Below are positions 2,290-48,824 of a stretch of DNA of 64,000 nucleotides, piece after piece; within the stretch, counting starts at the first letter, position 1, and each line of letters starts with the position of its first letter. Position numbers and translations under genes: made by a program. This stretch comes from an uncultured delta proteobacterium (lineage in GTDB: Bacteria; Desulfobacterota; Binatia; Binatales; Binataceae): contig CAWJET010000001.1 of NCBI GenBank assembly GCA_963842085.1, positions 352,001 to 416,000 of the forward strand, written 5' to 3'. The notes beneath the pieces were generated by a model that was not told the DNA's origin, made no database searches, and worked only from the letters and a program-made list of their open reading frames with translations.

Positions 2290-4044
2290 CTAATCCGCCG
2301 CGGCCGTTGAGTGTTCGATCGACAGCGATTGCGGCAGAAAATCCTCCGCAACCTCGGGCGAGCTGTACTCGTACGGTCCACGGTAAACGACCGGCACCGT
2401 CCCGGGCCAGTTGCCGTGCGGCGGCGGCGAGGGTGTCGTCCACTCCAGGGTATTCGAATTCCACGGATTCTCGGTGGCCTTCGCGCCCTTGAAATAGCTC
2501 CAGACCATATTCGCCAGGAGCAGGAACTGCGCGGTGCCGAGCACGAACGCGCTGATCGAAATAAAATAGTTGATCGGGATGATCGGCTTCAAGAAATCGT
2601 ACTGCTGCGGATTGTAAATCCGGCGCATGTGCCCGGCCATGCCGAGGATGTGCATCGGGAAGAAGGTGCAGTTGAACGCCACGAACGTGATCCAGAAGTG
2701 AATCTTGCCGAGCGTCTCGTTCATCATGCGGCCGAACATCTTGGGATACCAATAGGTAATCCCTGCGAATACGCCGAACAGGCTGCCGCCGAACAGTACG
2801 TAGTGAATATGGGCGACGATGAAGTAGGTATCGTGGATGTACATATCCACCGGCGTACACGCCATCCAGATTCCCGACAGTCCGCCGATCACGAACATCG
2901 CGACGAACGCCAGCGCGTTCATCATCGCCGCCGTGTAATGGATGTTGCCCTTGTAGAGCGTGCCGAGCCAGTTGAAGGTCTTAATCGCCGACGGCACTCC
3001 GATGATCATCGTGGTGATCATGAAACCGCCGCCCAGCACCGGATCCATCCCCGACACGAACATGTGGTGGCCCCACACGACCCATGACAGGAACGCGATC
3101 GCGATCATCGCGTAGGCCATCGCGCGGTATCCGAATATCGGCTTGCGCGAAAAGGTCGAGATGACGTCGGAGGAGATCCCCATCGCGGGCAGGATCATGA
3201 TGTAGACCTCGGGATGGCCGAAAAACCAGAACAGATGCTGCCATAGCAGCGGCTCGCCGCCGCCAGCGGGCAGAAAGAAATGGGTGCCGCCCATGCGATC
3301 GAAGAGCAGCAGCGCCAGCGCGGTGGTCAGCACCGGCAGCGCGAGCAGCAGCAGAATCGCCGTGATGAACAGCGACCAGATGACCAGCGGCAAGCGGAAG
3401 AAGTACATGCCCTTGGTGCGCATGTTGATGATCGTCGTGATGTAGTTGATCGAGCCCATCAGCGACGACGCGCCGAGCACGATGATGCTCATGCACCACA
3501 AGTCCTGGCCCCAATAGACGCCGCTGTAAATCGGCACCGCGCTCAGCGGAGCGTACGAAGTCCAGCCGGCCGCCGCCGGACCGCCGGTGACGAAGAACGA
3601 GGACAGCATGAGCACGCCAGCGACCGCGCCGACCCAGAACGACAGCATGTTCAGCTTGGGGAACGCCATGTCACGCGCGCCGATCATCAACGGGATGAGG
3701 AAGTTGCCGAAGCATCCGACCAGAATCGGCATCACCACGAAGAAGATCATGATGGTGGCGTGCATCGTCAATATCGAGTTGTAGGTGTTGGGCAGAATCG
3801 CGTTGTCGCTCTGGATCGAGGATGGGAAGATGCTGAGGAAACTCCACTGCTGGTCCGGCCACGCGAGATCCAGCCGCATCAGCATCGCCATCAGGCCGCC
3901 GATCGACATCATGAACAGCGCCATGAAGAGGAACTGCCGCCCGATCATCTTGTGATCCGTGGAAAAGATATATGTGCGCCAAAAGCCGAGCGCATGATGC
4001 TCGGCGTGAGCGCCGTGCGCCGCAACCGCTGCCGTACTACTCAT
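2290..4044 (-). CDS. coxA: cytochrome c oxidase subunit I (A1 type)
   Basis: DHKMIG, HATIMIFF, WFFGHPEVY, WGHHMF, HDTYFIVAHIHYV. Confidence 0.97.
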   Translation of the reverse strand: MSSTAAVAAHGAHAEHHALGFWRTYIFSTDHKMIGRQFLFMALFMMSIGGLMAMLMRLDLAWPDQQWSFLSIFPSSIQSDNAILPNTYNSILTMHATIMIFFVVMPILVGCFGNFLIPLMIGARDMAFPKLNMLSFWVGAVAGVLMLSSFFVTGGPAAAGWTSYAPLSAVPIYSGVYWGQDLWCMSIIVLGASSLMGSINYITTIINMRTKGMYFFRLPLVIWSLFITAILLLLALPVLTTALALLLFDRMGGTHFFLPAGGGEPLLWQHLFWFFGHPEVYIMILPAMGISSDVISTFSRKPIFGYRAMAYAMIAIAFLSWVVWGHHMFVSGMDPVLGGGFMITTMIIGVPSAIKTFNWLGTLYKGNIHYTAAMMNALAFVAMFVIGGLSGIWMACTPVDMYIHDTYFIVAHIHYVLFGGSLFGVFAGITYWYPKMFGRMMNETLGKIHFWITFVAFNCTFFPMHILGMAGHMRRIYNPQQYDFLKPIIPINYFISISAFVLGTAQFLLLANMVWSYFKGAKATENPWNSNTLEWTTPSPPPHGNWPGTVPVVYRGPYEYSSPEVAEDFLPQSLSIEHSTAAAD

Positions 4045-17197: not shown

Positions 17198-19987
17198 CTA
17201 CTTCTTACTCACTTTCGTCGGTGCACTCGCCGCTTTGCTCACTTTCGCCGGCACCGCCGCGACTTGTCCCGGCAGGGTCTCGCCCGGATGCGTGCCGAAC
17301 CAGAAAATATAGTCCCGCAGCGCGCGGATTTGCGCGTCCTGGTTGCCGCCCAGGATGTCGTCCGGGCCGCCGGGATAGAATGACGGCATCTTGGTGCCCG
17401 GCTGCAGCGCCGACGGATTTGCGATCCATTTCAAGATCCAGTCCGGATTCAACCGCACATGCGCGAGCGCCAGGTCCGGCGCCCATCCCGAGGGCGGGCC
17501 TTCAGGCTTCTTGTCGCCCTGCTGATGGCAGCTGAAACAGTTGAAGTAATCCTTGGTCATCAGCTTCGCACCCGCCTGCAGCTCGGCCGGCGGAATCGCG
17601 TTGGTGTTGATGAACATGAACGGCACGTTGATGTCCGACAGCGCCGTGAAGTAATTCACGATGGTGTCGTCTTCGCTGTTGGTGAAATGAAAGGTCGGCA
17701 TCCTGATCTTCAGCCATGGACGAATCGGCGTCGGCCCCTGCAGGAAGGTGAATAGCCACTCGGGCTGTACCTTGAAGCCTTCGCCATTGAGTATTGGCGG
17801 CGCAAAGTTGATTTCGTCTTCTGAGTAGAAGCGCCGGATGTAGCCGCCCCGATTCTCAATTATATGGCAGCCGACGCAGTTGTAGTAATTGATCATTCGC
17901 CGGCCCGCCACGATTTGCGTCTGATGCACCGAGCCGGGCATCCGGTATCGCTCCGGCACCTTGCCATCGGTCATGCCGGCCAGAAACACGATCAGGTTGT
18001 TGATGTCGGCGTTGTCGAAGTCGAAATTCGGCATCAACTGCTCGACGTCCTTGGTCGCGTAGATGCGCGGGGTCTGGAGTTTATGGAACGTCCATTGATC
18101 CCAGGTCTCGGGAATCTGGGTCTGGTTGCCGAAGAACAACTCGTCGAGATGCTTGGAGCCGAAGGTCGTCAACTCGACCCCGATGCGCGACTCCTTGTCC
18201 ATCCCCTGGATCTCGTGGCATCCGAAGCATCCGTACTTGCGCACCAGCGCTTCGCCCTTCTTGATATTGTCGGGATCCTTGAGCGCGGTTTCGACGCCGG
18301 CGTCTTCTTGCTTCTCGCCGTGCGTCATCAGGAATGCGGTCAGCGCTTCGGCTTCGTGATCGGTCAGGCGCAGCGAAGGCATCGCGGTATGCGGCGAGAA
18401 GTCGCGCGGATTCTTCAACCAGGTATAGACCCACGCCGCCGAAGTCTTCTCCGCGATCTTGTCCAGGTTGGGCGCGAAGTCCTTGGCCGTGCGCGCTTCG
18501 GCCGGCTGGAAGCCCTCCGCGACGCCGACCGGCGTTCCATATTTATCGGGATCGATCGCATGGCAGCCCTTGCAGCCGACCGACTCGAACAGCCCTTTGC
18601 CTTCTTCGACGAAGGCCGGATTCTTGATGTCCGTCTCGAGCGTCGGAGGCTCGGGATGCGCCGCGAGCCAGTCCTTCGAATTGTTTGCCGAGCTGTCGAA
18701 GATGAAGGCCGCCAACTCAGTCGCCTGCTCGCGCGAGAAATAGAAGTTCGGCATGCGCGTGTGCGGACGGAAGATATGCGGATCGGTGATCCAGCGCACG
18801 GTCCACGACGGATCGAGCTTGGCCGACGCGAGTTTCAGGTAGGGGCCGATCTTCGGCAGGTCCTCGTAGCCCGCCATCAGATGGCATCCCGCGCAGCCCA
18901 TCTGCTGGAACATGCGCTCGCCCTCGACCCAGTTCGCCGCGATCGGTTTGCCCGCGGCATCGTGCAGCGAGCCCACGTCGATATGGCACTTGACGCATCG
19001 CGACTGCATCTTGTCGCCACGCAGCATCGGAAAATCCCAATCTTTATCGTCCCCATGCGCCAGCCGCACGGAGCTGACCGCGGGCCCTTGCCCGTCGTGA
19101 CAGGGGGTGCATCCCAGTTTGTCGGGCGGATGCTTGCCGATGATCTGATCGAAGTTGCTATGCGTGCGAAACGGCTGGGGCGCATTCTCGAAGCCCTTCT
19201 TGTCGGCGCCCATGTGGCAGCTCTGGCATCGATCGACCCGCGCGACCGCCTCGTCGAAGGCGTTGCGGTCGAAGTCGTCGATCGCGGTCTGCTGAATCTT
19301 GGGAATTTTCGGATAGCGGAACAGCACCCGGCCGCGGAACTTGACCGGGATCATCCATGAGTCGGCCTTGTCGAAGAAGTCGTCGCGCTTTTTGGTCAGC
19401 TTCTTCATCTGATCGGTCAGGCTGTCAACCTTCGAGTTGAGCGCCTCGATCTCGTCCTTGACCGCCTGGAGATCGGCCTTGGCTTTGTCGGAGACGATAT
19501 TCTCCTGCGCCAGCTCGGCGTCGAGCTGATCGATTTCCTGCTTGTACGGCGCCGGGTTTTCTTTTTCCTGGATGGCATGGTTGTAGTCGTACCATCGCTC
19601 GGTCAAATACGACTTGGTGAAGCGGACCAGTTGATCCTTGTCGTTGGCGGTGTTGTTGAGAGCGGGCAACTGGGCGCGCAGAGCTTCAAGCTTGGCCGCG
19701 GTGGCGCCGGAATCGAGATCCTTCTGCGCCTCGGCCAGCTCCTTGGAGAGCTTCTGGTAGTCGGGATCGGCGTTGAGGCGCGTCTGCTCGTCGGCCGCGT
19801 CCTTCATGTACTTGTCGTACGCCAGCCGATCCCACTCGACCTGGTATTCCTTCCACGGACGGCGCGAGATGTTGTCGTCCCAAATCGACCAGACCGCGGT
19901 CACCAGCAACACCGCGACCAGCAGCACGAACAACGCGCTGTATGATTTCCCTTCTTCGGTGGGATCAAGCCCCGGTCTGCCAGCCAT
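17198..19987 (-). CDS. membrane-anchored octaheme cytochrome c (cytochrome bc complex c subunit)
   Basis: N-terminal TM and coiled coil; eight CxxCH (CQSCH, CTPCH, CVKCH, CAGCH, CKGCH, CFGCH, CVGCH, CFSCH); repeated xMPxF/L Met ligands. Confidence 0.9.
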   Translation of the reverse strand: MAGRPGLDPTEEGKSYSALFVLLVAVLLVTAVWSIWDDNISRRPWKEYQVEWDRLAYDKYMKDAADEQTRLNADPDYQKLSKELAEAQKDLDSGATAAKLEALRAQLPALNNTANDKDQLVRFTKSYLTERWYDYNHAIQEKENPAPYKQEIDQLDAELAQENIVSDKAKADLQAVKDEIEALNSKVDSLTDQMKKLTKKRDDFFDKADSWMIPVKFRGRVLFRYPKIPKIQQTAIDDFDRNAFDEAVARVDRCQSCHMGADKKGFENAPQPFRTHSNFDQIIGKHPPDKLGCTPCHDGQGPAVSSVRLAHGDDKDWDFPMLRGDKMQSRCVKCHIDVGSLHDAAGKPIAANWVEGERMFQQMGCAGCHLMAGYEDLPKIGPYLKLASAKLDPSWTVRWITDPHIFRPHTRMPNFYFSREQATELAAFIFDSSANNSKDWLAAHPEPPTLETDIKNPAFVEEGKGLFESVGCKGCHAIDPDKYGTPVGVAEGFQPAEARTAKDFAPNLDKIAEKTSAAWVYTWLKNPRDFSPHTAMPSLRLTDHEAEALTAFLMTHGEKQEDAGVETALKDPDNIKKGEALVRKYGCFGCHEIQGMDKESRIGVELTTFGSKHLDELFFGNQTQIPETWDQWTFHKLQTPRIYATKDVEQLMPNFDFDNADINNLIVFLAGMTDGKVPERYRMPGSVHQTQIVAGRRMINYYNCVGCHIIENRGGYIRRFYSEDEINFAPPILNGEGFKVQPEWLFTFLQGPTPIRPWLKIRMPTFHFTNSEDDTIVNYFTALSDINVPFMFINTNAIPPAELQAGAKLMTKDYFNCFSCHQQGDKKPEGPPSGWAPDLALAHVRLNPDWILKWIANPSALQPGTKMPSFYPGGPDDILGGNQDAQIRALRDYIFWFGTHPGETLPGQVAAVPAKVSKAASAPTKVSKK

Positions 19988-20060
19988 CTGCTCTACCTGT
20001 CCTCAACTCAGAAATGCCGCCCGAGGACGCCGTCCAGATACTCACTCGAATAGTCAGTAG

Positions 20061-20240
20061 TCATTTGCCCGCGCGCACCCACACCGCCTCGATGATGTAG
20101 CCGGCGAGAAACACCAGGATGCCGATGCCGGTGAACTTGTACTCGATCCCCATCCCGTGCGGCTGCGTAATTCCAACGTAGAGCGCAAACCCGACGTCGG
20201 CGAGTCCGAGCGCCTGCAGAACTTTGGCGAGGATGAACAC
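20061..20240 (-). CDS. 59-aa two-TM small protein in the bc operon
   Basis: Manual translation MFILAKVLQALGLADVGFALYVGITQPHGMGIEYKFTGIGILVFLAGYIIEAVWVRAGK* (GTG start). Confidence 0.65.
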   Translation of the reverse strand: MFILAKVLQALGLADVGFALYVGITQPHGMGIEYKFTGIGILVFLAGYIIEAVWVRAGK

Positions 20241-20258
20241 GGAGTCGTCGCGGCCACG

Positions 20259-21164
20259 TCAGACGTTAATCCAGGGCGTAACCAGGATGTACTTGATGTT
20301 GAGCGCGTGCCGCAGCGCCATCTTGATGAACACGCCGGCCATCGCGAGCAGCAGAAATCCGGTGATGCCGAAGCGCACCGGTCCCCACTTCTCGAGGATC
20401 TCGGGACCGCCGCCGGGAAACGCCGACCAGCGATCGCCCGCCGGCCGCGATCGTATCCAGAAATACAGCGCCGCGTACCCAACCACGAAGTAGCCGAGTA
20501 TCAGAAACAAGCCGAACAGCGCCGACGCCAGGTAGTCGCGGAAACCGAACATGTACGGCAAATCGACGTTGGTCAGCGCCTCGACCATATGCGGATCCCA
20601 GACCTGGCCGGGCCAGAACCAGTTCCAGCCGGGGCCGCGGAAAAACGTGCCGATGATGATGAACGACACCCACAGGATGTGGAAGCCGACGAAAAAAGTC
20701 ATGATCTCGAACCATCGCTCGCGCAAGGTGTAGTAGCCGTTACCTTTCGGATTGATGTCGAGATACGGGATCAGCATCAGGCCCACGATAATGAAGCTCG
20801 GCAGCACCACGCCCGCATACCACGGGTCGAAGAACACCAGCATTTCCTGCAAGCCCAGGAAGTACCACGGCGCCTTGGACGGATTGGGCGTGCGGGTCGG
20901 ATTCGACGGCTGCTCGAGCGGCGCGTTGAGCATCAGCGACCACACCGTCAACACGATGATGACCAGGATCGACATCAGGAATTCGTTGCGCACCAGGAAC
21001 GGCCAGGTATGCAGCTTCTCCTCGACGCCGCCGCCCGCCTTCTTGATCGGGACTTCGATGCGCTTGCCGCCCGCAGCCGGCGGCCTGGCGGCAGCTCCGC
21101 CGGCGCCCGCTCCCGCCGCCGCGCGCATCACGATTCCGCCTTCGTTACCTTCCGGGCTTGCCAT
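20259..21164 (-). CDS. cytochrome b C-terminal / subunit IV-like protein
   Basis: HTWPFLV, APLEQPSNPTRTPNPSKAPWYFLGLQE (PEWY-equivalent region), IPYLD. Confidence 0.85.
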   Translation of the reverse strand: MASPEGNEGGIVMRAAAGAGAGGAAARPPAAGGKRIEVPIKKAGGGVEEKLHTWPFLVRNEFLMSILVIIVLTVWSLMLNAPLEQPSNPTRTPNPSKAPWYFLGLQEMLVFFDPWYAGVVLPSFIIVGLMLIPYLDINPKGNGYYTLRERWFEIMTFFVGFHILWVSFIIIGTFFRGPGWNWFWPGQVWDPHMVEALTNVDLPYMFGFRDYLASALFGLFLILGYFVVGYAALYFWIRSRPAGDRWSAFPGGGPEILEKWGPVRFGITGFLLLAMAGVFIKMALRHALNIKYILVTPWINV

Positions 21165-21186
21165 GATTAATCCCTTAGCAAGGTGC

Positions 21187-21321
21187 TCAGTTCTCGTCGT
21201 CGGTCCACGGCGGCGGTGCCGCCAGCCGGTACATTATATACAGCAGGATCGACATTGCGATCGGCACCGACAGCACCCGCACGATTCCCTGGTGCAGCAG
21301 CCATGAAAATACGTCTCCCAT
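21187..21321 (-). CDS. 44-aa single-TM small protein in the bc operon
   Basis: Manual translation MGDVFSWLLHQGIVRVLSVPIAMSILLYIMYRLAAPPPWTDDEN*; GAGG RBS. Confidence 0.65.
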   Translation of the reverse strand: MGDVFSWLLHQGIVRVLSVPIAMSILLYIMYRLAAPPPWTDDEN

Positions 21322-21339
21322 CCAGCGCCTCGACCAGTC

Positions 21340-22113
21340 CTAGAGCGGCCCCGACATGCCGTCGCGCCGGATTCGCCAGAAATGCACCGCCATGAAGATG
21401 CTCGCGATCAACGGAAAAAAGATGCAGTGCAAAATGTAGAAGCGCAGCAGCGTGTGCGGCCCGATTTCCGCGCCGCCGAAAATAAATGCGCGCGCGTCGT
21501 AAATCGGATTCACTCCCAGTAATTCATGGAACGGGCCGCCATGCCCGAGCAGCGGAGTCGCGCGCGCCATGTTCGAGCCGACCGTCACTGCCCATATCGA
21601 AAGCTGATCCCACGGCAGCAGGTATCCGGTGAACGACAGCAACAGCGTCAGCACCAGCAGGATCACGCCGACCACCCAGTTGAACTCGCGCGGCGGCTTG
21701 TACGAGCCGGTCATGAACACGCGGAACATGTGCAGCCAGACCGCGATCACCATTCCGTGCGCGGCCCATCGATGCATGTTGCGCATCAGCATGCCGAACG
21801 GCATGTCGAACTCGAGGTACTTCATGTCGGCGTAGGCGTATTCCGCCGTCGGCCGGTAGTAGAACATCAGGTACACGCCGGTCACCACCGTCACCAGGAA
21901 AAGCAGAAAGGTGATGCCGCCCATGCACCAGGTGAAGCGCAGGCGCACGGTATGCTTCTGCACTTTCGACGGATGCAGATGGAGCCACACGTTGCCGGAG
22001 ACCATCAGGATCCGGTTGCGCGGCGTGTCTTCGTAGCCGTGCCTGAATATCGACTGCCAGGCCTGCGAATCGGTTATCTGGCGCTTCGTTTCGTTCCAGT
22101 CGAACTTAGCCAT
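21340..22113 (-). CDS. cytochrome b6-like N-terminal subunit
   Basis: WCMGGITF (heme ci Cys position), RNMHRWAAH, HMFRVF, PREFNW, TGYLLPWDQ, RFYILHC. Confidence 0.93.
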   Translation of the reverse strand: MAKFDWNETKRQITDSQAWQSIFRHGYEDTPRNRILMVSGNVWLHLHPSKVQKHTVRLRFTWCMGGITFLLFLVTVVTGVYLMFYYRPTAEYAYADMKYLEFDMPFGMLMRNMHRWAAHGMVIAVWLHMFRVFMTGSYKPPREFNWVVGVILLVLTLLLSFTGYLLPWDQLSIWAVTVGSNMARATPLLGHGGPFHELLGVNPIYDARAFIFGGAEIGPHTLLRFYILHCIFFPLIASIFMAVHFWRIRRDGMSGPL

Positions 22114-22476: not shown

Positions 22477-22836
22477 GTGCCCTCGTCCGAAGCATCTCAC
22501 GAAACCGCTCGCAGATTGCGCCGCGAGCAAACTCCCGCCGAGCAAGTTTTATGGCGTCATCTGCGAGGCCAGCGTATGTCCAACGTGAAGTTCCGCCGCC
22601 AACATCCGATCGGCCCCTGCTTCGCCGACTTCTGCTCGATTGAACGCCGTCTGATCGTCGAACTCGATGGTGGACAGCACGCCGACCAATCCGCTGAAGA
22701 CGAAGTTCGCAGCTCCTTTCTCAACTCGTACGGCTACCGAGTCCTGCGCTTCGGGAATTACCAGGTGCTATACAACATCCGGGAAGTGCTCGACGAAATC
22801 GAAAAAGTCCTGAGCTCTGATTCTTCAGAATCTTGA
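22477..22836 (+). CDS. DUF559 / Vsr-like endonuclease domain protein
   Basis: ARRLRREQTPAEQVLW, KFRRQHPIG, DF...LIVELDGGQH, GYRVLRF. Confidence 0.9.
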   Translation: MPSSEASHETARRLRREQTPAEQVLWRHLRGQRMSNVKFRRQHPIGPCFADFCSIERRLIVELDGGQHADQSAEDEVRSSFLNSYGYRVLRFGNYQVLYNIREVLDEIEKVLSSDSSES

Positions 22837-22920: not shown

Positions 22921-23313
22921 CTATAACTGCGGCTTGCCGGAGCCGCGGCGGAAGCGGCCGAAGAGTGCGACGATCAAGCCCCACAGCACCATCAGGATTG
23001 CGATCCCGATTACGCCGAGGCCGACACCGGCCAGAATTCCCGTCGCGCACAGCACAGCACCGATGACGAACAGCGGGATTGCGAATGCGATCGGGTTGAA
23101 CGGGTCGTTGCGCGCCGCCCGCGCGACCATCGCCGCCGCCTGCTCTGCCGTACCCGCATCTTCGTTGCTCTCTTTGAGCAGGCTCACCGCGTAGTCGGTA
23201 AGTTCCTGGCGATTGGGCATCGCGCGGAGACGGTCGGCGAGCTCTCGGGCGAGCTCCTCGACGCGTTCGTCGTTCTCCTGGGAGTCGGGGTCGGGTTTGT
23301 TCGATTCAGCCAC
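22921..23313 (-). CDS. hypothetical membrane protein (two C-terminal TMs)
   Basis: 130-aa ORF, 46 bp downstream of the HgcAB-like gene. Confidence 0.7.
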   Translation of the reverse strand: MAESNKPDPDSQENDERVEELARELADRLRAMPNRQELTDYAVSLLKESNEDAGTAEQAAAMVARAARNDPFNPIAFAIPLFVIGAVLCATGILAGVGLGVIGIAILMVLWGLIVALFGRFRRGSGKPQL

Positions 23314-23359
23314 GCTGCACTTGCTTCTCGCTCGCGGCTAACACCTATCGAACATGAGA

Positions 23360-24478
23360 TCAGGTTGTCAACGTAGCACCCGCTCCTCCCGCATCCACGG
23401 TTCTCTTGCCAAGAAGATTGAGCTTGAAGCGCCGGATCGTCTCGGGTTCGATTCGATTTCCGCTCTCATCTTCGAACGCAAGAGCGTCGGTGGGACACTG
23501 CACGACGCAGGCGCCGCACCTGATGCAGCGGTCGCTGCGGGCAATTTCGACCTTGCGCACATCTTCACGCTTGTCGAAGCATGCCTCGGGACAGACTTGC
23601 CAGCAGAAATAAACGCCCTTGCAGCGATCCAGGTCCAGCTTGATGTGCCAGCGCGCCTCCTTGAAATGGCTGCCGCCCTCGATCGGCGTGGAACCCGAAT
23701 AATCGAAAGTGAGCAGCGCCGAGAACGCGATGCCGGCGAGCGGAGCGGCGATGAGCGCCGCGGTGCCTGCGCCGGCAATGGCCGCCAGTGCAAGCGGCGT
23801 CAACGATGCGATGAGCGCCAGGCGAATGAAGCTTTGCCGCAGAAGGCGATCGTAAACCGTGAAGACCGCGATCGCGAGCGCCCACACCATCGCAATCAAC
23901 GGCAACAGCCACGACGGACGAAGCGCGAGAACCGGAATCGCCGCCAGCAGCGTCATCGGCACAGCCCATACCGTCGCCATCTCGAGCCGTTCCCGAATCC
24001 CGAATTGGACGTGACGCATGTCGTCGGTTTTCTGTTCGTGCTGCGCCAGGTAGCGGGGAATGTCGTTGGCATAGACGGGGCCGAATTTTACCTGCCAGTG
24101 GGAACGGCGCTCGACTTCGCGCGCGAGCACGCCCGTCGCCGCCAGTTGCGGCAGGATGGCCCGGCGATGCTGGACCCGCTCGGCGACACCCGAGGTCTTG
24201 AGCGCGGTGACGACCTGATGGGTGCTCAGGTGGCCTCCGGAAGCGGCGCACCAGACATTGATTCCGCTGGACGGGGCGACCACCAGCCACGCGTCCACGC
24301 CGCGCATCGCGCGCATCACGCGCCTGACGGTGAGGTCGAAGTTGCAGGTTATCAGCACTGGACTCAGCGGGCCGGGCTTGCCGATCTGCCGCAGCCCCGG
24401 TTCGGTCGGCCACGGCGCCAGGCGAAATCCCGTTTGCAGCGCGTCTCGTGCGAGATCGGAAATCGTTTGAAGAATCAT
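23360..24478 (-). CDS. HgcAB-like fusion protein (corrinoid domain + TM helices + ferredoxin)
   Basis: PGLRQIG, SPVLITCNF, GINVWCAASGG cap helix, ILPQLAATGV, GPV; TM block; CKGVYFCWQVCP and CIRCGACVVQCP. Confidence 0.88.
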   Translation of the reverse strand: MILQTISDLARDALQTGFRLAPWPTEPGLRQIGKPGPLSPVLITCNFDLTVRRVMRAMRGVDAWLVVAPSSGINVWCAASGGHLSTHQVVTALKTSGVAERVQHRRAILPQLAATGVLAREVERRSHWQVKFGPVYANDIPRYLAQHEQKTDDMRHVQFGIRERLEMATVWAVPMTLLAAIPVLALRPSWLLPLIAMVWALAIAVFTVYDRLLRQSFIRLALIASLTPLALAAIAGAGTAALIAAPLAGIAFSALLTFDYSGSTPIEGGSHFKEARWHIKLDLDRCKGVYFCWQVCPEACFDKREDVRKVEIARSDRCIRCGACVVQCPTDALAFEDESGNRIEPETIRRFKLNLLGKRTVDAGGAGATLTT

Positions 24479-25134
24479 TGTGGCCGCTCCGCAACTACTA
24501 CTGCGAGAGTTTCAAACAGCCATCGAGCTTCGCTGCGCAATACAAATCCCGCCGCCGCCACTTCTGCCGCGAGGTCCGCAATCGGGCGCGAGACCGACCC
24601 GACGATGACCCAGGCCAGCGCCGCCTGTGGGCCGCGAACGATGCCTTGCAACAGGCGCTTTGCGAACGAACGCGGCCGCACTTCATCGGCGATCACGATC
24701 GCGCCCCCGGGACGAAGCGCGTGGTATGCGCACTTGAGCACGAAGCCGCGTTCCTGGCGCGACATTTCCGACAGACTCAGGCTGGCGACCACCGCGTCGA
24801 AACTCTGCTCCGCAAACGCATCTATCTCGGAGGCCGTTCGTTCAATGAAGGTGATTGCTTGCGCCGGCGCGTTTGCGAGTCGCGAGCGCGCCCGTTCCAG
24901 CATCTCGGGATTCTGATCCAACGCGGTCACCCGGGCGCCGCGCGCGACCAGCGCTTCGGTCACCGCGCCGGTGCCGCATCCGATCTCGAGTACGCTTGCA
25001 CCAGGTGAAGGCGCCGCCGCGTCCGCCACGGCCTGACGAATTCGTCGGACTTTCCCCAGCGTCAGCACCCGCATGCCGGCGTCGTACCGCGCCGGCGCCG
25101 ACTCGAGCAGGCGCATCAGGGCGAGCGAGCTCAT
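24475..25134 (-). CDS. class I SAM methyltransferase (CpaM-like, corrinoid-protein associated)
   Basis: VLEIGCGTG motif I; N-terminus MSSLALMRLLESAPARYD; ATGA overlap with the HgcAB-like gene. Confidence 0.85.
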   Translation of the reverse strand: MSSLALMRLLESAPARYDAGMRVLTLGKVRRIRQAVADAAAPSPGASVLEIGCGTGAVTEALVARGARVTALDQNPEMLERARSRLANAPAQAITFIERTASEIDAFAEQSFDAVVASLSLSEMSRQERGFVLKCAYHALRPGGAIVIADEVRPRSFAKRLLQGIVRGPQAALAWVIVGSVSRPIADLAAEVAAAGFVLRSEARWLFETLAVVVAERPQ

Positions 25135-25715
25135 GACTGCAAAATCCTCCGGACGCAGCCAACCAGGAGACGGCGGGTCGCGGCTGCGTCGTCAAAGGCG
25201 GCTCCCTCGACTATCTTCAGCAACAGCAGCCCGTCGACCAGCGCGATCACGGCGGTGGCAGCCTCTTCCGGTCTGAGACTCGTGTCGATCTCAGCGCAAC
25301 GCTGCCCTTGCTCGATTAGCTCCGCCAGGTCGCGGCGAATTCGACCGAAGAACGGCTTGAAGCGCGCGCCCGACGCCGACCAGAGATCCAGCAGCATCTT
25401 GCCAATCGACGCCCAGTCGGCGAACAATTCCGCCAGCTTGCCGGTAAGCTGCTCGATCCGCCGGAGCGGACTTCCCTTCGTGTCGCGCAGCGCCCTTATG
25501 AACAAGCCTTCCTCTTCGGCGAGCAGGTCGCGCACCAGATCGCGCACCAGCGACGCCTTGTCCCGGTAGTAGTGATAGATGGACGCGCGGCCGATGCCTG
25601 CGGCTCTGGCCACATGGACCAGGCCGACAGCTTCGACCCCGCGCCGCGCGAACACCCGCCGCGCGGCGGTGCGGATGGTTTTACGCTGGACCTCGCGATC
25701 GACTATTTTCGGCAT
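25131..25715 (-). CDS. TetR/AcrR family regulator
   Basis: VARAAGIGRASIYHYYRDK HTH; ATGA overlap with the methyltransferase. Confidence 0.92.
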   Translation of the reverse strand: MPKIVDREVQRKTIRTAARRVFARRGVEAVGLVHVARAAGIGRASIYHYYRDKASLVRDLVRDLLAEEEGLFIRALRDTKGSPLRRIEQLTGKLAELFADWASIGKMLLDLWSASGARFKPFFGRIRRDLAELIEQGQRCAEIDTSLRPEEAATAVIALVDGLLLLKIVEGAAFDDAAATRRLLVGCVRRILQS

Positions 25716-25724
25716 AACTGTCTA

Positions 25725-25758
25725 TTTCGACAGTAATGTCGAAAACAGCCTATGTCAA
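25725..25758 (-). promoter_or_regulatory. sigma70 promoter with overlapping TetR-type operator
   Basis: TTGACA-17-TACTGT on the minus strand; perfect palindrome TTTCGACA-GTAA-TGTCGAAA (25725-25744) over the -10. Confidence 0.8.
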
Positions 25759-25787
25759 CATATAGGAGCCGGTGCGCGGACTCCCCT

Positions 25788-28268
25788 TCAGAGTTCCACT
25801 CTTCGCAATCTGAGTGCGTTGGTGATTACTGACACGGAGCTCATGCTCATCGCGGCGCTCGCGATTACTGGACTCAGCAGCAGGCCGAATACGGGATAGA
25901 GAACGCCCGCGGCGATAGGTATCCCAAGCGTGTTGTAGATGAACGCAAAGAAAAGATTCTGCCGGATGTTGCGCATCGTCGCGCGGCTCAGGCGCCGCGC
26001 TTTCGCGATTCCGCGCAGGTCGCCCTTGACCAGCGTCACGCCCGCGCTCTCCATCGCGACGTCGGTGCCCGTGCCCATCGCGATACCAACCTGCGCCTGC
26101 GCCAGCGCGGGTGCGTCGTTGATACCGTCGCCCGCCATCGCGACGATTCGCCCTTCCGACTGCAATCGCTTCACCACCGCGGCCTTCCGATCGGGCAACA
26201 CCTCCGCCTCGACCTGATCGATGCCGAGTTTGTTCGCAACCGCCGCCGCTGTGACTCGATTGTCGCCGGTCAGCACGACGATCTTGACGCCATCATCCTG
26301 CAGCATCTTGAGTGCTTCCGCAGTTGACGCCTTGATTGGATCGGCCACGCCGATGAGTCCCGCGGGGCGGCCGTCGATCGCGACGAACATCACGGTCTGT
26401 CCATCTTTTCGCTGCGCGTCGGCATCGGCGGAAACCGCGTCGATAGCAACGCCCAGCCCGCGCATCATGTGCTGATTTCCAAGCGCGACTGCGCGGCCCT
26501 CGATTCGCCCGCTGACGCCTTCGCCGGTCACCGACTTGAAGTCCTCTGCCGGCGCGAGCGTCAACTTGCGCTCTTCTGCGCCTGCGACAATCGCAGCCGC
26601 CAGTGGATGCTCACTGCCGCGCTCGAGGCTGGCGGCGAGCCGCAAAACGTCGGCCTCGGTGAAACCGTCGAGCGCGGCGGTCGAGACCAGGCGCGGTTTT
26701 CCTTCGGTCAGCGTCCCGGTCTTATCGACCACGAGCGTGTTCACCTTTTCGAGAGTCTCGAGCGCTTCGGCGTTTTTGATCAGCACGCCCGCGGTCGCGC
26801 CGCGCCCCGTGCCAACCATGATCGACATTGGCGTTGCGAGGCCGAGCGCGCAGGGACACGCGATGATCAGCACCGCGACCGCGTTCACCAGCGCATAGGC
26901 CATCCGCGGTTGCGGACCGACCATCGCCCATACGACGAACGTAATCACGGCCGAGACCACGACGGCCGGGACGAAATACGACGCGACCACATCGGCGAGC
27001 CGCTGGATCGGTGCGCGGCTGCGTTGCGCCTCGCTCACCATGCGGACGATCTGCGCGAGCAGCGTATCGCTGCCGACCCGCTCGGCGCGCATGATAAATC
27101 CGCCGGTGCCGTTGATGGTCGCGCCGATCAGGCGGTCGCCCGGTTTCTTTTCGACCGGGATTGGCTCGCCGGTAACCATCGACTCGTCAACCGAGCTGGT
27201 TCCCTCCTCTACGACGCCATCGACCGGGACTTTCTCGCCCGGCCGCACGCGCAACCGATCTCCCGGGGCGACGCGATCGAGCGCGATATCCTCTTCGCGG
27301 CCGTCGGGTCTGATCGCGCGCGCGGTCTTCGGCGCCAGTCCCAGCAGCGCTTTGATCGCGCTGCTGGTATTGCTTCGCGCGCGAAGTTCGAGGACCTGGC
27401 CAAGCAGCACCAACGCGGTGATAGCGGCGGCCGCCTCGAAGTAAACGGGGACGCTGCCATCGGCGGTGCGGAACGAATCGGGAAATAAATGCGGGAAGAC
27501 GGCTGCGATCAGGCTGTAACCGTAAGCGACGCCGATGCCCATCCCGATCAACGTGAACATGTTCAGGCTGCGGTTGACTAACGAATGCCAGCCGCGAACG
27601 AACAGCGGCGCGCCCGCCCACAGCACGGCCGGAGTTGCCAGCGCCAGCTCAATCCAGGTTCGGAGCGCCGCGGGCATTGCATGCTGCAACGGCTGGCCCG
27701 GTATCATGTCCGACATTTCGATCAAGATGAGCGGAAGCGCTAGCGCGACGCTTATCCAGAAGCGCCGCGTCATATCGGTCAGTTCCGGCGAGGCCTCCTC
27801 GCCGACAACTGCGACGCGCGGCTCCAGCGCCATCCCGCAGATTGGGCAATTGCCGGGCTCGGAGCGGACGATCTGCGGATGCATCGGGCAGACGTATTCG
27901 GTTTTCGAAACGGGCTGGATTGGCGCGAGAGACTCAAGCGCCATGCCGCATTTCGGGCACGACCCCGGATGGTCCTGGCGAATCTCGGGATGCATCGGGC
28001 ACGTGTAGATAGAAGCGCCTGCCGCGACTGGCAAAGGTGCGCGGGTCTTGGCCGGTGCCCTTTCAGGCACCCCGCGAGCCAGGACACCCTCAGGATCGTT
28101 TTTGAATTTCTCGAGACAGCGGAGACCGCAAAAGTGGTATGTCGTGCCCTTGTATTCGAACGATCCCTTGCTCTTCGCAGGATCGACCTGCATCCCGCAC
28201 ACCGGGTCGACAACTTTGCCGCTCGTCGGCGGCGTCACTTTGGTAGCAACTTTGGTCTCCGTATTCAT
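25788..28268 (-). CDS. copA: Cu(I)-translocating P1B-type ATPase with YHS and two CPMHP domains
   Basis: DPVCGM YHS, YxCPMHP x2, TGE, CPC, DKTGT, SEHP, GDGIND, YN and MSMSS. Confidence 0.95.
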
Positions 28269-28410
28269 ATCGAACGCTGTGCGCCGTCCCGCCATCGAAA
28301 ATCGCAGCGTTCAGCACCGCCCGCAACCGAGCCGCTGCGTTCGATCTCGGCGCCCGGCCCTTCGCCAATGTTTCTTTGCCCGGAGAAGCAACCGGCGCGA
28401 GCGCTGAATC

Positions 28411-28797
28411 CTACTTGCCCTGCTCCAGCTCCTGGCTGCGCTTCTCCATCAGCTCGCCCATTTCCTTCATCATCCGGCCGCGGATCTCCATCATCTGCGC
28501 GCGCGTCTTCGGGTCGTTCATCATCGTCTGCATCATCTGCATATCCATCATGCGGCCCGGCCCGCACATCATGCCGGGACCCATCATGCCGGGCCCGCCC
28601 ATCATGCCCGGCCCCATCTTCCCGGAGCCGCCCATCATCCCTTGCCCGCTCATCATGCCCGGTCCACCCATCATGCCCGGTCCCATTGGTTGCGATGGAG
28701 CCGGCGAACTAGCCGGCTGCCCAAATGCCAGCACCGAGGAAAGAATCAAAATACCAGTGACGCTCGCGAGACTGGCGACGAAGTGCCTGTCATTCAT
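28411..28797 (-). CDS. Met/Gly-rich secreted protein, probable Cu/Ag binder
   Basis: AGGAG RBS; signal peptide; repeated GPGMM units; upstream of copA. Confidence 0.75.
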   Translation of the reverse strand: MNDRHFVASLASVTGILILSSVLAFGQPASSPAPSQPMGPGMMGGPGMMSGQGMMGGSGKMGPGMMGGPGMMGPGMMCGPGRMMDMQMMQTMMNDPKTRAQMMEIRGRMMKEMGELMEKRSQELEQGK

Positions 28798-28970
28798 TTG
28801 TTGTTCTCCTGCCAGGGTTATATTCCCCGGGCTGTTGCGGCTGTCGCGGGTAAAGCTATCGGAGGCTGCGACGGCAGTTGATGCCAACACAGCCAAGGAG
28901 CTTGATAAGTAAGGTTACTACGGGACGCGCTCGCCGAAAACAGAGCGCGGCTAATCCGCGCGGTGGCGAC

Positions 28971-29588
28971 TCACGCGTTCTTGCGCGCGATGATCACTGA
29001 ATGCACCGACCAGCGGCTGATCTTTTCGTTGCGCTCGAGCGTGATCGGATGGCCCTTGAGCACGTCCCGCTTGCGCAGCCTGGTGGTCCATCCCAGTTGC
29101 CGCGTGATCGGATTGACGAGGGTGTTGAAGGCCGCGACCACCGGGTTGTCGCTCTGGAAATGCGTCGTGAGCGCGATCCGGCCGCCCGGCTTACACACCC
29201 GCACCATCTCCGACATCATCTTGTACGGATCTGGCACCACCGTCAGCACGTGAAACGAGGTGACGTAGTCGAAGCTGTTGTCGGGATAGTCGAGGTTCAG
29301 CGCGTCGCCCTGGCGCAGCTCGATATGGCCCCAGCCGTTTTCCTTCACGCGCTTGCGGGCATGCTCGAGCATGTCGGCCGACGGATCGATTGCAACGATG
29401 TGCGCGTACGGCGGATACCCGTCGAGCGCGATTCCGGTGCCGACGCCAACCTCGAGCACGCGGTTCCCGGGCCTGAGACTCAGGCTCTCGATAACCTCGT
29501 GCTCGCGGTCGACAAAAACACGGCCGAAGAAAAAATCGTAGAAGCGCGCCAGGTCGGAGTAGACACGGCTCTCATGCGGTTCGGACAT
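28971..29588 (-). CDS. class I SAM methyltransferase (PmtA-like)
   Basis: YDFFFG, VLEVGVGTG, VVPDP, RVCKPGG. Confidence 0.85.
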   Translation of the reverse strand: MSEPHESRVYSDLARFYDFFFGRVFVDREHEVIESLSLRPGNRVLEVGVGTGIALDGYPPYAHIVAIDPSADMLEHARKRVKENGWGHIELRQGDALNLDYPDNSFDYVTSFHVLTVVPDPYKMMSEMVRVCKPGGRIALTTHFQSDNPVVAAFNTLVNPITRQLGWTTRLRKRDVLKGHPITLERNEKISRWSVHSVIIARKNA

Positions 29589-38123: not shown

Positions 38124-39029
38124 ATGCAGACGATAGACGCTTTCGACAAAGAGTTCCGCACCGAAGACGACTGCAAGAATTTCCTCATGCAGATGCGCTG
38201 GCCTGACGGCGTGCGATGCCCGCGATGCAAGAGCAAAGAGCGCATCTACGCTCTGAAGGCTCGACCATTTCATTGGGCGTGTTGCAACAAGGGTTGTGGC
38301 GAGCGGCGCGGCTATCGTTTTAGCGTCATCACAAAAACCATTTTTGAAAACACCAAAATCCCTCTCAAGCTTTGGTTCAAAGTAGCATTCCTGATTTTGA
38401 CCGCGAAGAAAGGAATCAGCGCTCTACAGGTCCATCGCGTGATCTTCGGAGAGGAATCGACGCACGCCTACCACACAAGCTGGTACGTCTGCATGCGCTG
38501 GCGTTGCGCGATGAAGGGCGACGTAATGCCGCTCGATGGAATTGTCGAGGTTGACGAAACTTTCGTCGGCGGGAAAGCGCAGAACATGCACGCCAGCAAG
38601 CGCAAAGCGCTCGCCTTGACCGGAACGAAAAACAAAGTCGCGGTCATTGGCGCAATCGCCCGCAAGGGAATGATCGTCGCAAAAGTGATCGAGAATACCG
38701 ATACCGCGACGCTCGATAGTTTCGTCCGCCAGACAGTTTCAAAAGACGTGAAGCTGGTCGCGACCGATGAACACTCCGGCTACCGGCTGTTGGGCGCGGA
38801 CATGGATCACCGCGTAGTCCGCCACGGTCAGGGCGAATACGTAGTCGGAACCACGCACGTCAATTCGATTGAATCGTTCTGGTCGCTGTTCAAGCGCGGG
38901 ATCATCGGCTCGTACCACAAAGTCAGCAAACAGTATCTTCCGCTCTACGTGAACGAATTTGCGTGGCGCTTCAACAACCGCAAGAACCCTGCGATGTTTG
39001 CTGACTTGATCCAAAGCGTCAGCCGCTAG
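38124..39029 (+). CDS. IS1595 family transposase
   Basis: RWPDGVRCPRC zinc ribbon, VEVDETFVGG, TDE...Y, HVNSIESFW, YVNEFAWRFN. Confidence 0.95.
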   Translation: MQTIDAFDKEFRTEDDCKNFLMQMRWPDGVRCPRCKSKERIYALKARPFHWACCNKGCGERRGYRFSVITKTIFENTKIPLKLWFKVAFLILTAKKGISALQVHRVIFGEESTHAYHTSWYVCMRWRCAMKGDVMPLDGIVEVDETFVGGKAQNMHASKRKALALTGTKNKVAVIGAIARKGMIVAKVIENTDTATLDSFVRQTVSKDVKLVATDEHSGYRLLGADMDHRVVRHGQGEYVVGTTHVNSIESFWSLFKRGIIGSYHKVSKQYLPLYVNEFAWRFNNRKNPAMFADLIQSVSR

Positions 39030-46547: not shown

Positions 46548-48215
<1,668 letters not shown>

Positions 48216-48259: not shown

Positions 48260-48547
48260 CTACTCGATGATTCCCAGGATGTCGTCCTCGCGCAGGATCA
48301 GCAGGTCTTCGCCCTCGTGCTTGAACTCGCTGCCCGAGTATTTGCCGAACAGGATCTTGTCGCCCGCCCTGACTTCGATGGGGATAAGCTTGCCGTCGTC
48401 GCCGTATTTGCCCTTGCCGACGGCGACCACCTTGCCCTCCTGGGGCTTTTCCTTGGCGGTGTCGGGGATGATTATCCCACCCTTAGTCCGCTCCTCTTCC
48501 TTGATCCGCTTGACGAGAATTCTATCTCCCAGTGGCTTTATTTTCAT
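48260..48547 (-). CDS. groES: co-chaperonin GroES
   Basis: [13 protein letters not shown]...[16 protein letters not shown]. Confidence 0.98.
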
Positions 48548-48639
48548 TGGGACCAGCAGCCTCCTTGCTTGCTGAAAAGTGTTGCCTGGCTGGACGATTC
48601 CAGCCGTCGGAAAGTTAATTACTGTCCGGGTTTTGTCAA

Positions 48640-48666
48640 TTGGCACTCGTAACGTCTGAGTGCTAA
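48640..48666 (-). promoter_or_regulatory. CIRCE element (HrcA operator)
   Basis: TTAGCACTC-N9-GAGTGCCAA, 1 mismatch to consensus; TTGCAT-17-GATAAT promoter just upstream. Confidence 0.92.
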
Positions 48667-48824
48667 CGGCATTATCAGCCCGCTGCGGGAGAAATGCAAG
48701 CCCTGTGGATAAAGGTGCGGATTGACGGCGCATGCGTCTCTCCCGCGATTGTGCCCGCTTCCGGCGCGGAAGAGCCCCTTCTGTCTCGTCCTCCTTCCCG
48801 CGCGGAGAGGGCAACCAGAAAAAA

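Follow-up and report, generated by a model that had tools for sequence, protein, structure and literature searches.

Among the described systems closest to the locus reported here is the mercury-methylation pair HgcA/HgcB of Pseudodesulfovibrio mercurii ND132, with which it has in common a corrinoid domain of corrinoid iron-sulfur protein (CFeSP) type, a Cys thiolate ligand, a C-terminal transmembrane (TM) region and a two-cluster ferredoxin. The locus lies on the minus strand of a 64-kb stretch of DNA (64,000 nucleotides, hereafter the window) from contig CAWJET010000001.1 of an uncultured delta proteobacterium, and encodes a TetR-type regulator, a predicted S-adenosylmethionine (SAM) methyltransferase and a single protein in which corrinoid, TM and ferredoxin parts are fused. 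For purified HgcAB, it was reported that SAM, not methyltetrahydrofolate (methyl-THF), methylates Co(I) to form a Cys-ligated methyl-Co(III) species, that no partner methyltransferase is needed for this reaction, and that the HgcB clusters serve as an electron relay (Zheng et al. 2024, PMC11588087). Fused HgcAB proteins were described as a rare family by Podar et al. (2015), who reported methylmercury (MeHg) not above controls for Pyrococcus furiosus and cautioned that this negative result is no proof against catalysis (PMC4646819). Methanococcoides methylutens was likewise reported to form no MeHg above controls (Gilmour et al. 2018, PMC5893877), caution with the fused forms was advised by Capo et al. 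(2022, PMC10087281), and Lin et al. placed the fused forms in a sister clade of HgcA and named an aerobic carrier, Breoghania (bioRxiv 10.1101/2022.11.21.517362).

The reported methyl donor of HgcAB, SAM (PMC11588087), is matched in the window by a SAM enzyme. In contrast, the two polypeptides of HgcAB are one in the window, five TM helices were reported for HgcAB and four are modelled here, and the HgcA cap-helix motif N(V/I)WCA(A/G/S)GK reads NVWCAASGG. HgcB of ND132 has two CxxCxxCxxxCP motifs together with C73, C94 and C95 (PMC11588087), whereas the window protein has CxxVxxCxxxCP as its first motif and no Cys in its tail; a dedicated class I methyltransferase partner and an oxygen-respiring host further set the window apart. 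The CFeSP large subunit (AcsC/CdhE) of the Wood-Ljungdahl pathway shares the corrinoid-binding domain (residues 22-146 of the window protein), but neither its N-terminal [4Fe-4S] domain nor its TIM-barrel domain nor its small subunit has a counterpart in the window, the window protein is membrane-anchored, and the CFeSP methyl donor is methyl-THF through MeTr, not SAM. From the pair modelled in NCBIfam as NF043039 and NF043040, of which NF043039 corresponds to the 'fused HgcAB' clade of Podar et al. (2015), nothing essential differs: domain order, cap-helix Cys and gene adjacency are shared, and a TetR with a conserved operator (found in a 15-row clade) and a copA gene are additions on the window side. 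The locus thus belongs, as a normal member, to a known and curated, biochemically uncharacterised family, for which the window copy is ordinary; its lineage-specific features are the TetR and the operator, besides a copA neighbour that appears to be incidental.

Based on these comparisons and on the surveys below, the region 23360-25758 on the minus strand is proposed, with a probability of about 0.6, to be a TetR-autoregulated operon for a methyl-transfer module made up of CpaM and an HgcAB-like fusion protein, a paralogue of the HgcAB system.

The CpaM and fusion-protein module

The fusion protein scored 402.3 bits against NF043039 ('HgcAB-like fusion protein'), above the cutoff of 285 and over profile positions 3-349 of 350, and failed the cutoffs for true HgcA (NF040863, 168.5 versus 275, with alignment of the N-terminal 175 residues only), true HgcB (NF040864, 51.2 versus 99) and the CFeSP large subunit (NF003195, 84.7 versus 306, with alignment of the C-terminal corrinoid domain only). 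In Pfam, PF03599 (the C-terminal part of CdhD) matched residues 21-143 and Fer4 models matched residues 278-342; by sequence, the nearest entry in the PDB was a CFeSP large subunit (E 1e-14, residues 22-146). An AF2 model built from a 61-sequence alignment reached a predicted local distance difference test (pLDDT) value of 85.9 and a predicted template-modelling score (pTM) of 0.83, with low confidence only at cap residues 78-81 and in the last 15 residues. In a Foldseek search of the PDB, the best match was the HgcAB model 9a0b_A, with E 6.5e-11 and 32% identity over 274 columns, followed by CFeSP large subunits (127 residues superposed with a root-mean-square deviation of 2.3 A); for the ferredoxin part, HgcB (9a0b_B) and small ferredoxins were matched. 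Since the number of modelled TM helices is even, both cofactor domains should lie on the same side of the membrane, which is probably the cytoplasmic one. Invariant residues cluster near this presumed cytoplasmic face of the membrane domain, namely R164 and E166-P174 where TM1 begins, Y209-D210-R211 following TM2 and T257-F272 following TM4.

A preliminary description of this DNA, made from its letters and translated open reading frames (ORFs), had assigned an HgcA-type corrinoid domain, a TM block and a fused ferredoxin to this protein, and the NF043039 score, the helices of the AF2 model and the Fer4 models bear this out; the cap motif GINVWCAASGG, the missing Cys of the first cluster motif and the lack of a C-terminal Cys pair were also given exactly as they stand in the sequence. 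Of the model searches that it had proposed, those with the HgcAB-like and CpaM models were positive and that with the true HgcA model was negative. Its characterisation of the locus as a candidate unknown system is not supported, because both proteins score above curated NCBIfam cutoffs and the pair is thus already named and catalogued.

Cys77, the cap-helix Cys, is invariant in 61 sequences and is presumed to be the lower axial cobalt ligand. The cap motif ends in GG (NVWCAAxGG) in 73 of 81 family proteins, that is, the window and the 80 surveyed loci described below, whereas that of true HgcA ends in GK; six such GK motifs were reported to define true HgcA (PMC10087281). In the same set of 81 proteins, a three-Cys first motif (C-x2-nonCys-x2-C-x3-CP) with a canonical second motif was found in 49 (48 loci and the window), two canonical motifs in 13, no ferredoxin motif within the ORF in 16 (CpaM-fused or truncated forms), the three-Cys motif only in two and one canonical motif only in one. 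By this motif census, the missing Cys is a subfamily trait, and the variability of the residue in its place (A 21, V 17, I 4, T 3, D 2, others 4) indicates that this position is not a ligand; the four Cys residues of the second motif (C318, C321, C324 and C328) are invariant in the 61-sequence alignment. Cys300, in the sequence CPEAC, was considered as a family-wide fourth ligand and rejected, as many three-Cys members have CPRDVL or CPSEVL instead. No Cys follows residue 328 in the fusion protein, and 47 of the 49 three-Cys proteins likewise lack a Cys after the last CP. The tail residues R349, N354, G357 and R359 are invariant or nearly so, and a KLNLLG-type tail is present in 52 of the 81 proteins.

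Partial resemblance was found to the 7Fe ferredoxins of the FdxA type, which also have one full CxxCxxCxxxCP and one motif lacking a Cys ligand, followed by CP-x-x-C-F, and to which the fusion protein gave weak PDB matches (E 0.003-0.009). In contrast to FdxA, the spacing in the window is C-x5-C, the FdxA models reached only 25-29 bits against cutoffs of 125-135, and the three-Cys subfamily as a whole does not retain the Cys after CP. In 7Fe ferredoxins the site without one Cys holds a [3Fe-4S] cluster, and by analogy the three-Cys site may hold either [3Fe-4S] or a site-differentiated [4Fe-4S] cluster. Four of the surveyed loci (L053, L054, L057 and L062) encode two canonical four-Cys motifs together with Cys-rich, HgcB-like tails (3-9 Cys), and this sub-clade may be functionally closer to true HgcAB.

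The family was sampled in two ways. A word-seeded search gave at least 684 homologues at E <= 1e-5 among 8000 candidates scored, the best 120 of which were 61-99% identical; a scan of one genome per species gave at least 601 pattern matches, of which 598 were confirmed, and the best 80 loci (cited where necessary by L numbers) were used for all locus counts. They come from metagenome-assembled genomes (MAGs) or environmental assemblies throughout and represent Myxococcota, 'Deltaproteobacteria', Chloroflexota, Acidobacteriota, Actinomycetota, Gemmatimonadota, Pseudomonadota, Heimdallarchaeota, Bathyarchaeia, Thermoplasmata and others. One locus, L001, is 91% identical and syntenic with the window. 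A tblastn search of a plasmid collection with the fusion protein gave no match, and there was thus no sign of plasmid carriage in that collection.

The methyltransferase of the window matched NF043040 ('corrinoid protein-associated methyltransferase CpaM') over profile positions 1-216 of 216 with 265.9 bits against a cutoff of 180, and its next-best NCBIfam matches (UbiE/MenG and others) remained below 70 bits. It is a class I enzyme whose GxGxG motif is VLEIGCGTG, and G52, G54, T55, G56, D73, D150 and E151 are near-invariant in 64 sequences. The preliminary description had set the conservation of the methyltransferase beside the fusion gene as a point on which its reading would stand or fall, and a CpaM-like ORF was found upstream in 76 of the 80 loci, as a separate same-strand gene in 63 and within the ORF of the corrinoid protein in 13. 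No CpaM match was obtained in the remaining four, two of which (L049 and L050) are cut off upstream. All but one of the 64 separate methyltransferase ORFs, the window included, matched NF043040 at E <= 2e-53 (about the 180-bit cutoff), the exception presumably being the 86-aa truncated fragment of L025.

In the window, the stop codon of tetR overlaps the start codon of cpaM by 4 nt (...cagtcATGAgc..., 25131-25134), and the stop codon of cpaM overlaps the start codon of the fusion gene in the same manner (...cacaATGAtt..., 24475-24478), as read directly from the sequence. Among the 63 loci with a separate cpaM, 42 show a 4-nt overlap with the fusion gene (in-frame ATGA, GTGA or TTGA), 16 have a spacing of at most 60 nt, two of at most 300 nt, and in three the genes are farther apart owing to inserted genes. 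At this place L039 has toxin-antitoxin-like ORFs, L080 a second methyltransferase-like ORF and L016 a minus-strand ORF of no assigned family, and no conserved third component was found among the inserts of these three loci. In L039 (4400-5993, a MAG of Ardenticatenales), the small inserted ORFs resemble, by eye, a RelE/ParE-like toxin and a PIN-like protein.

The 13 same-ORF forms are mostly from Chloroflexota, and all five such proteins that were compared with NCBIfam scored above the CpaM cutoff (230-287 bits). The 591-aa protein of L051 is a complete CpaM-HgcA-ferredoxin triple fusion (371 bits against the HgcAB-like model); the other four contain no ferredoxin in the ORF and reached 237-276 bits against that model. 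A small ferredoxin gene lies directly 3' of the fusion in 11 same-ORF loci, and nine of these 11 listed ferredoxins carry the three-Cys motif, those of L058 and L070 being canonical. In the ESM Atlas, clusters of CdhD joined to a methyltransferase domain have 110 and 67 members. The occurrence of separate-fused-fused (as in the window), fused-fused-separate and fully fused arrangements provides Rosetta-stone evidence that the three modules act together. Furthermore, a predicted complex of CpaM with corrinoid residues 1-165 gave an interface score (ipSAE) of 0.47, the best of three controls being 0.01, with a partner pLDDT of at least 80 and agreement of at least 89% of the contacts between runs. 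The mark applied to such predictions is passed by 116 of 157 solved complexes and two of 215 mismatched pairs, and passing scores of 0.60 or lower comprise 18 of the 157 solved complexes and both passing mismatches; given the natural fusions, the predicted complex is mildly favourable.

The module has no constant surroundings. From the 80 loci, the called ORFs that lie nearest to the cassette on either side were collected (145 ORFs in total) and compared with Pfam at E <= 1e-6. TetR_N was found 12 times and every other family at most three times, including MFS_1 (three), generic methyltransferase models (three), an ArsR-type HTH_5 domain (two) and an E1-E2 ATPase (in L001 only); no metal-resistance family was recurrent among the 145 flanking ORFs. 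These counts are lower bounds, because the crude GC3-weighted caller missed some real genes, such as the tetR of L001. An all-against-all clustering of ORFs was informative for TetR only, as spurious opposite-strand ORFs displaced real genes in high-GC loci. CpaM and the fusion protein make up a self-contained module without conserved metal-resistance context.

In the searchable library, no paper on CpaM was found, alone or in connection with a corrinoid protein or fused hgcA, and the CpaM link is known in the searchable literature only through the names of the NCBIfam models. Not found in print were the extent of CpaM coupling, the permutations of the fusion, the TetR operator, and the fact that the three-Cys motif and the Cys-free tail are conserved. 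Haft and Gwadz (2023, J Bacteriol 205:e00259-22) are cited in the report on purified HgcAB (PMC11588087) for selenoprotein homologues of hgcA and hgcB, and the NCBIfam models may have been described there.

TetR and its operator

The regulator matched PF00440 (50 bits versus 24) and PF13977 (34.8 bits), the latter a BetI-type C-terminal domain. An identity with choline-responsive BetI was rejected, since the equivalog cutoffs were failed (54.3 versus 118 and 52.3 versus 201 bits). A quick maximum-likelihood tree of 74 family proteins, from which the partial rows L010, L042, L045, L049, L050, L066 and L069 were left out, placed the window in a 15-row clade with an SH-like approximate likelihood ratio test (SH-aLRT) support of 99, and 12 of the 15 rows, including the window, bear a TetR. 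Orthologues of the regulator (tblastn, 115-335 bits) lie directly 5' of cpaM in 11 loci and 3' of the fusion gene in L050; they are 42-50% identical to the TetR of the window, with the exception of L001 (88%).

The 72-nt gap between copA and tetR houses a TTGACA hexamer, a candidate -10 element TACTGT and a palindrome, and TACTGT sits inside the palindrome, which is the predicted TetR site (Table 1). The 16-mer core of this operator occurs exactly once in the 64-kb window, and with up to two mismatches nine matches were found against 4.5 expected; the degenerate copy that abuts the palindrome may act as a second operator. An exact TCGACA-N4-TGTCGA lies within 120 nt 5' of the tetR start in seven of the 12 TetR loci (L001, L002, L022, L004, L005, L007 and L008), near-matches are present in L013, L006, L024 and L056, and L005, L007, L008 and L013 have tandem double operators. 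No operator core was found upstream of the TetR in L050, whose gene order differs. Because the operator is kept in relatives whose TetRs are only 42-50% identical, the palindrome is credible beyond chance. A TTGAC[ATC] hexamer about 17-19 nt upstream of TACTGT and TACTGT itself recur in L001, L002 and L022, and this arrangement of promoter elements and operator fits repression by promoter occlusion. An Rfam scan of the whole window gave 0 matches, and so no cobalamin riboswitch or other RNA element was detected in it.

In the ligand half of the regulator, F72, R86, F98, R127, Q138 and D161 are invariant and W101 and D110 near-invariant among 13 orthologues, and no conserved Cys or His was found in the ligand domain of these 13. 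This speaks against a sensor of thiophilic metals and for an organic ligand, which is accordingly the probable type of inducer.

Proposed methyl transfer and competing explanations

A possible mechanism can be outlined for the module. TetR would be bound to the palindrome that overlaps the -10 element and could be released by a ligand, probably an organic one. The ferredoxin domain, with one four-Cys [4Fe-4S] cluster and one three-Cys cluster, would take up low-potential electrons and reduce the corrinoid to Co(I). CpaM with bound SAM may then dock on the N-terminal corrinoid domain and pass the methyl group to Co(I), and the resulting methyl-Co(III) could be stabilised by the Cys77 thiolate. 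Finally, the methyl group would be handed to an acceptor where the four-helix membrane domain faces the cytoplasm. Family membership, the coupling of the genes, the natural fusions, the operator and the anatomy of domains and motifs are shown by the present data, and from them we infer these four stages, TetR release, cluster reduction, loading by CpaM and methyl hand-over; transfer of the SAM methyl group by CpaM to the corrinoid protein is hinted at indirectly by the natural fusions and the weakly predicted complex, and the Co(I) step is supported by homology to the step from SAM to Co(I) in HgcAB. The route from SAM over cobalamin to an acceptor with reactivation by the ferredoxin, as put forward in the preliminary description, has a reported precedent in purified HgcAB (PMC11588087). 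Since a SAM enzyme alone can methylate nucleophiles, the use of a corrinoid relay points to an acceptor for which a methyl carbanion or radical is required.

Several points weigh against this proposal. For every member of the family, cobalamin binding, the use of SAM and the acceptor are inferred, and the predicted contact between CpaM and the corrinoid domain is weak. As purified HgcAB was reported to use SAM unaided (PMC11588087), CpaM might not load the methyl group and could act elsewhere. In L057 and L061 (two of the 80 loci), the fusion gene has ample upstream sequence and no adjacent CpaM. Furthermore, Co(I) chemistry would be chemically awkward in an aerobic host, and that the host respires oxygen, as had been supposed, is supported by genes in the window for COX1, a heme A synthase of the CtaA type and a prenyltransferase of the UbiA/CtaB type. 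With regard to autoregulation, a consensus promoter scan called no minus-strand sigma-70 site 5' of tetR (one site found in the scan versus 1.1 by chance), which is due to the match of TACTGT to TATAAT at only three of six positions, and the promoter therefore rests on the -35 hexamer and on conservation only. A terminator scan of the minus strand gave no terminator-like hairpin between copA and tetR, so that read-through from copA is possible. Of the three ATGA-coupled genes with their own promoter and operator that had been described at the outset, the coupling and the operator were thus confirmed, and the promoter only in part, by its -35 hexamer and not by a scan call.

In one competing explanation, CpaM is a reductive-reactivation factor only, which re-methylates oxidised Co(II), and the corrinoid protein carries a methyl group from another donor. 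SAM-dependent reactivation of this kind is a property of methionine synthase, and it would suit an aerobic host, in which Co(I) would often be oxidised, as well as the fusion to a ferredoxin domain. The first chemical step would be the same as in the proposed transfer, and so the coupling evidence fits both equally. However, no second methyltransferase or pterin-binding protein is recurrent among the 145 flanking ORFs, the module is found in very different genomic contexts and phyla, and SAM was reported to be the stoichiometric donor in HgcAB (PMC11588087), which together make a role in reactivation only unlikely.

It has also been considered that the module is a metal(loid) methylase for detoxification, which would methylate Hg(II) or another soft metal(loid) in concert with CopA and a Met-rich protein while the TetR senses the metal. 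The homology to HgcAB, including Cys77 as cobalt ligand, favours such a role, as do the presence of copA directly 5' of the operon in the window and in L001, the ArsR-type HTH domain in two of the 145 flanking ORFs, the reported control of true hgcAB by an ArsR-like regulator (bioRxiv 10.1101/2022.10.17.512643), and the suitability of a carbanion or radical methyl donor for metal cations, which would be in line with the report on HgcAB (PMC11588087). The copA and Met-rich genes are indeed neighbours of the operon, as first noticed; however, a strong CopA match directly upstream (1088 bits) was found in only one of the 80 loci, L001, and weaker P-type ATPases only in L027 (280 bits, opposite strand, 2.4 kb downstream) and L033 (partial, 183 bits, 2.6 kb upstream), besides a 30-bit CopA fragment in L069. 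With adjacency in one of 80 loci, the hint at metal detoxification drawn from copA is not supported, and the flank survey offers no recurrent metal-resistance family in its place. Moreover, the C-terminal Cys pair of HgcB and Cys73, which were reported to be essential (PMC11588087), are absent from the window protein, the ligand domain of the TetR lacks conserved Cys and His, and the carriers P. furiosus (PMC4646819) and M. methylutens (PMC5893877) were reported to give no MeHg above controls, the three-Cys or four-Cys subgroup of their proteins not being established. A detoxifying metal methylase is therefore regarded as improbable.

A further explanation, in which the corrinoid/Fe-S protein carries out non-methyl chemistry (reductive dehalogenation, for instance, or some other reduction by Co(I) of a xenobiotic that the TetR senses) and CpaM independently methylates the product, is very improbable. 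In its favour, the combination of a corrinoid, two Fe-S clusters and membrane association recalls reductive dehalogenases, and TetR regulators usually sense organic ligands, to which a ligand domain without metal-type residues conforms. Against it, the protein resembles the methyl carriers CFeSP and HgcA in fold and sequence, not RdhA, and the translational coupling and fusion of CpaM with the corrinoid protein argue for direct methyl transfer.

Returning to the proposed methyl transfer from SAM through CpaM and the corrinoid, a speculative and rather doubtful extension would make the pair an oxygen-compatible 'methyl umpolung' machine, in which a corrinoid with a Cys ligand is loaded by a class I SAM enzyme, a three-Cys cluster ([3Fe-4S] or site-differentiated [4Fe-4S]) takes the place of one of the HgcB clusters, and an electrophilic acceptor at the membrane receives the methyl group as a carbanion or radical. 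If this were true and the acceptor were a metal(loid), Hg included, the module could be an unrecognised source of organometals in oxic soils and waters; with a carbon acceptor, it could be a new class of B12-dependent C-methylases without a radical-SAM domain. The module is present in at least 598 species genomes, among them those of Myxococcota, Chloroflexota, Acidobacteriota, Actinomycetota and several archaeal phyla. When mercury-methylation genes are surveyed in the environment, fused HgcAB homologues are a confounding factor, and the question of their function dates from 2015. The conserved unit is CpaM with the corrinoid protein (and ferredoxin), in every permutation of fusion, and together with the HgcAB result reported in 2024 (PMC11588087) it provides the family with a concrete in vitro assay based on two proteins. 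The window adds an example of this family, not a new kind; in its clade, the ligand of a TetR with a defined operator could reveal the substrate.

Neighbouring genes and other features of the window

Table 1. Positions of the operon, its sequence elements and selected neighbouring genes in the window
Feature	Position	Strand	Description
UbiA/CtaB-type prenyltransferase	380-1606	minus	
CtaA-type heme A synthase	1282-2274	minus	
Heme-copper oxidase subunit I	2290-4044	minus	
130-aa ORF	22921-23313	minus	GTG start, hydrophobic C-terminus, 46 nt 3' of fusion gene
Fusion gene, corrinoid/TM/ferredoxin	23360-24478	minus	372-aa ORF
Cys-free C-terminal tail	23363..23491	minus	contains RIEPETIRRFKLNLLGKR; stands where HgcB has essential Cys pair
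Second Fe-S motif CIRCGACVVQCP	23492..23527	minus	residues 318-329; canonical CxxCxxCxxxCP
First Fe-S motif CKGVYFCWQVCP	23588..23623	minus	residues 286-297; Val at second-Cys position; three Cys
TM block	23705..23998	minus	four helices, 161-186, 188-213, 217-234, 239-258 (DSSP of AF2 model)
Cap-helix motif GINVWCAASGG	24233..24265	minus	residues 72-82
cpaM, predicted SAM methyltransferase	24475-25134	minus	219-aa ORF
tetR	25131-25715	minus	194-aa ORF
Second operator-like copy	25709..25724	minus	two mismatches; abuts palindrome, overlaps tetR start codon
Operator palindrome TTTCGACA-TTAC-TGTCGAAA	25725..25744	minus	perfect; 10-29 nt 5' of tetR ATG; predicted TetR site
-35-like hexamer TTGACA	25753..25758	minus	perfect; 17 nt 5' of TACTGT
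copA, P1B ATPase	25788-28295	minus	835 aa; YHS (PF04945) and two HMBD (PF19335) domains
Met/Gly-rich ORF	28411-28896	minus	ATG at 28797 gives signal-peptide-like N-terminus

The operon belongs to an interval of six ORFs, all on the minus strand, in the order Met/Gly-rich ORF, copA, tetR, cpaM, fusion gene and 130-aa ORF (Table 1). CopA passed TIGR01511 (598.5 bits versus 397) and failed the E. coli-type equivalog NF007952 (681.9 versus 1316). Its sequence has CPC, YN and MSMSS, which we take to be a Cu(I) signature, and it appears to be a copper exporter unrelated to the module. The Met/Gly-rich ORF is without a family match and has no match in the 80 loci, where low complexity may hide some; its unusual composition includes repeated MGPGMMGG units and a Met-rich helical C-terminus, from which a role in the periplasm as a Cu(I)-binding protein may be suspected. 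The ORF is bordered by terminator-like hairpins at 28961-28945 and 28320-28304. At the other end of the interval, the 130-aa ORF is without a Pfam or NCBIfam match, has a homologue only in L001 (one of the 80 loci) and is probably lineage-specific and outside the conserved module. Just 3' of the operon, a DUF559 endonuclease-like ORF (22477-22836, plus strand, 119 aa) is convergent to the 130-aa ORF.

Upstream of the Met/Gly-rich ORF, a second class I methyltransferase of 205 aa is encoded at 28971-29588 (minus strand), syntenic in L001; it is most similar to the phospholipid N-methyltransferase PmtA, against which it scored 121 bits (cutoff 390, hence not a member), and only weakly, 63 bits, against CpaM. 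On the other side of the operon, a minus-strand respiratory cluster at 17198-22113 looks like a split bc-type complex and comprises a multi-heme cytochrome c of 929 aa (17198-19987), a membrane ORF of 301 aa without a Pfam match at E 1e-12 (20259-21164) and a protein of the cytochrome b N-terminal type (21340-22113). The segment 38001-42000 has a GC content of 0.53-0.56, compared with about 0.62 elsewhere, contains an IS1595/ISXO2-like transposase (ORF 38124-39029) and may be a small inserted element. In the minus-strand ORF at 48260-48979, GroES (Cpn10) occupies only residues 146-238 of 239, so that the ORF start is probably over-extended, and groEL follows it at 46548-48185.

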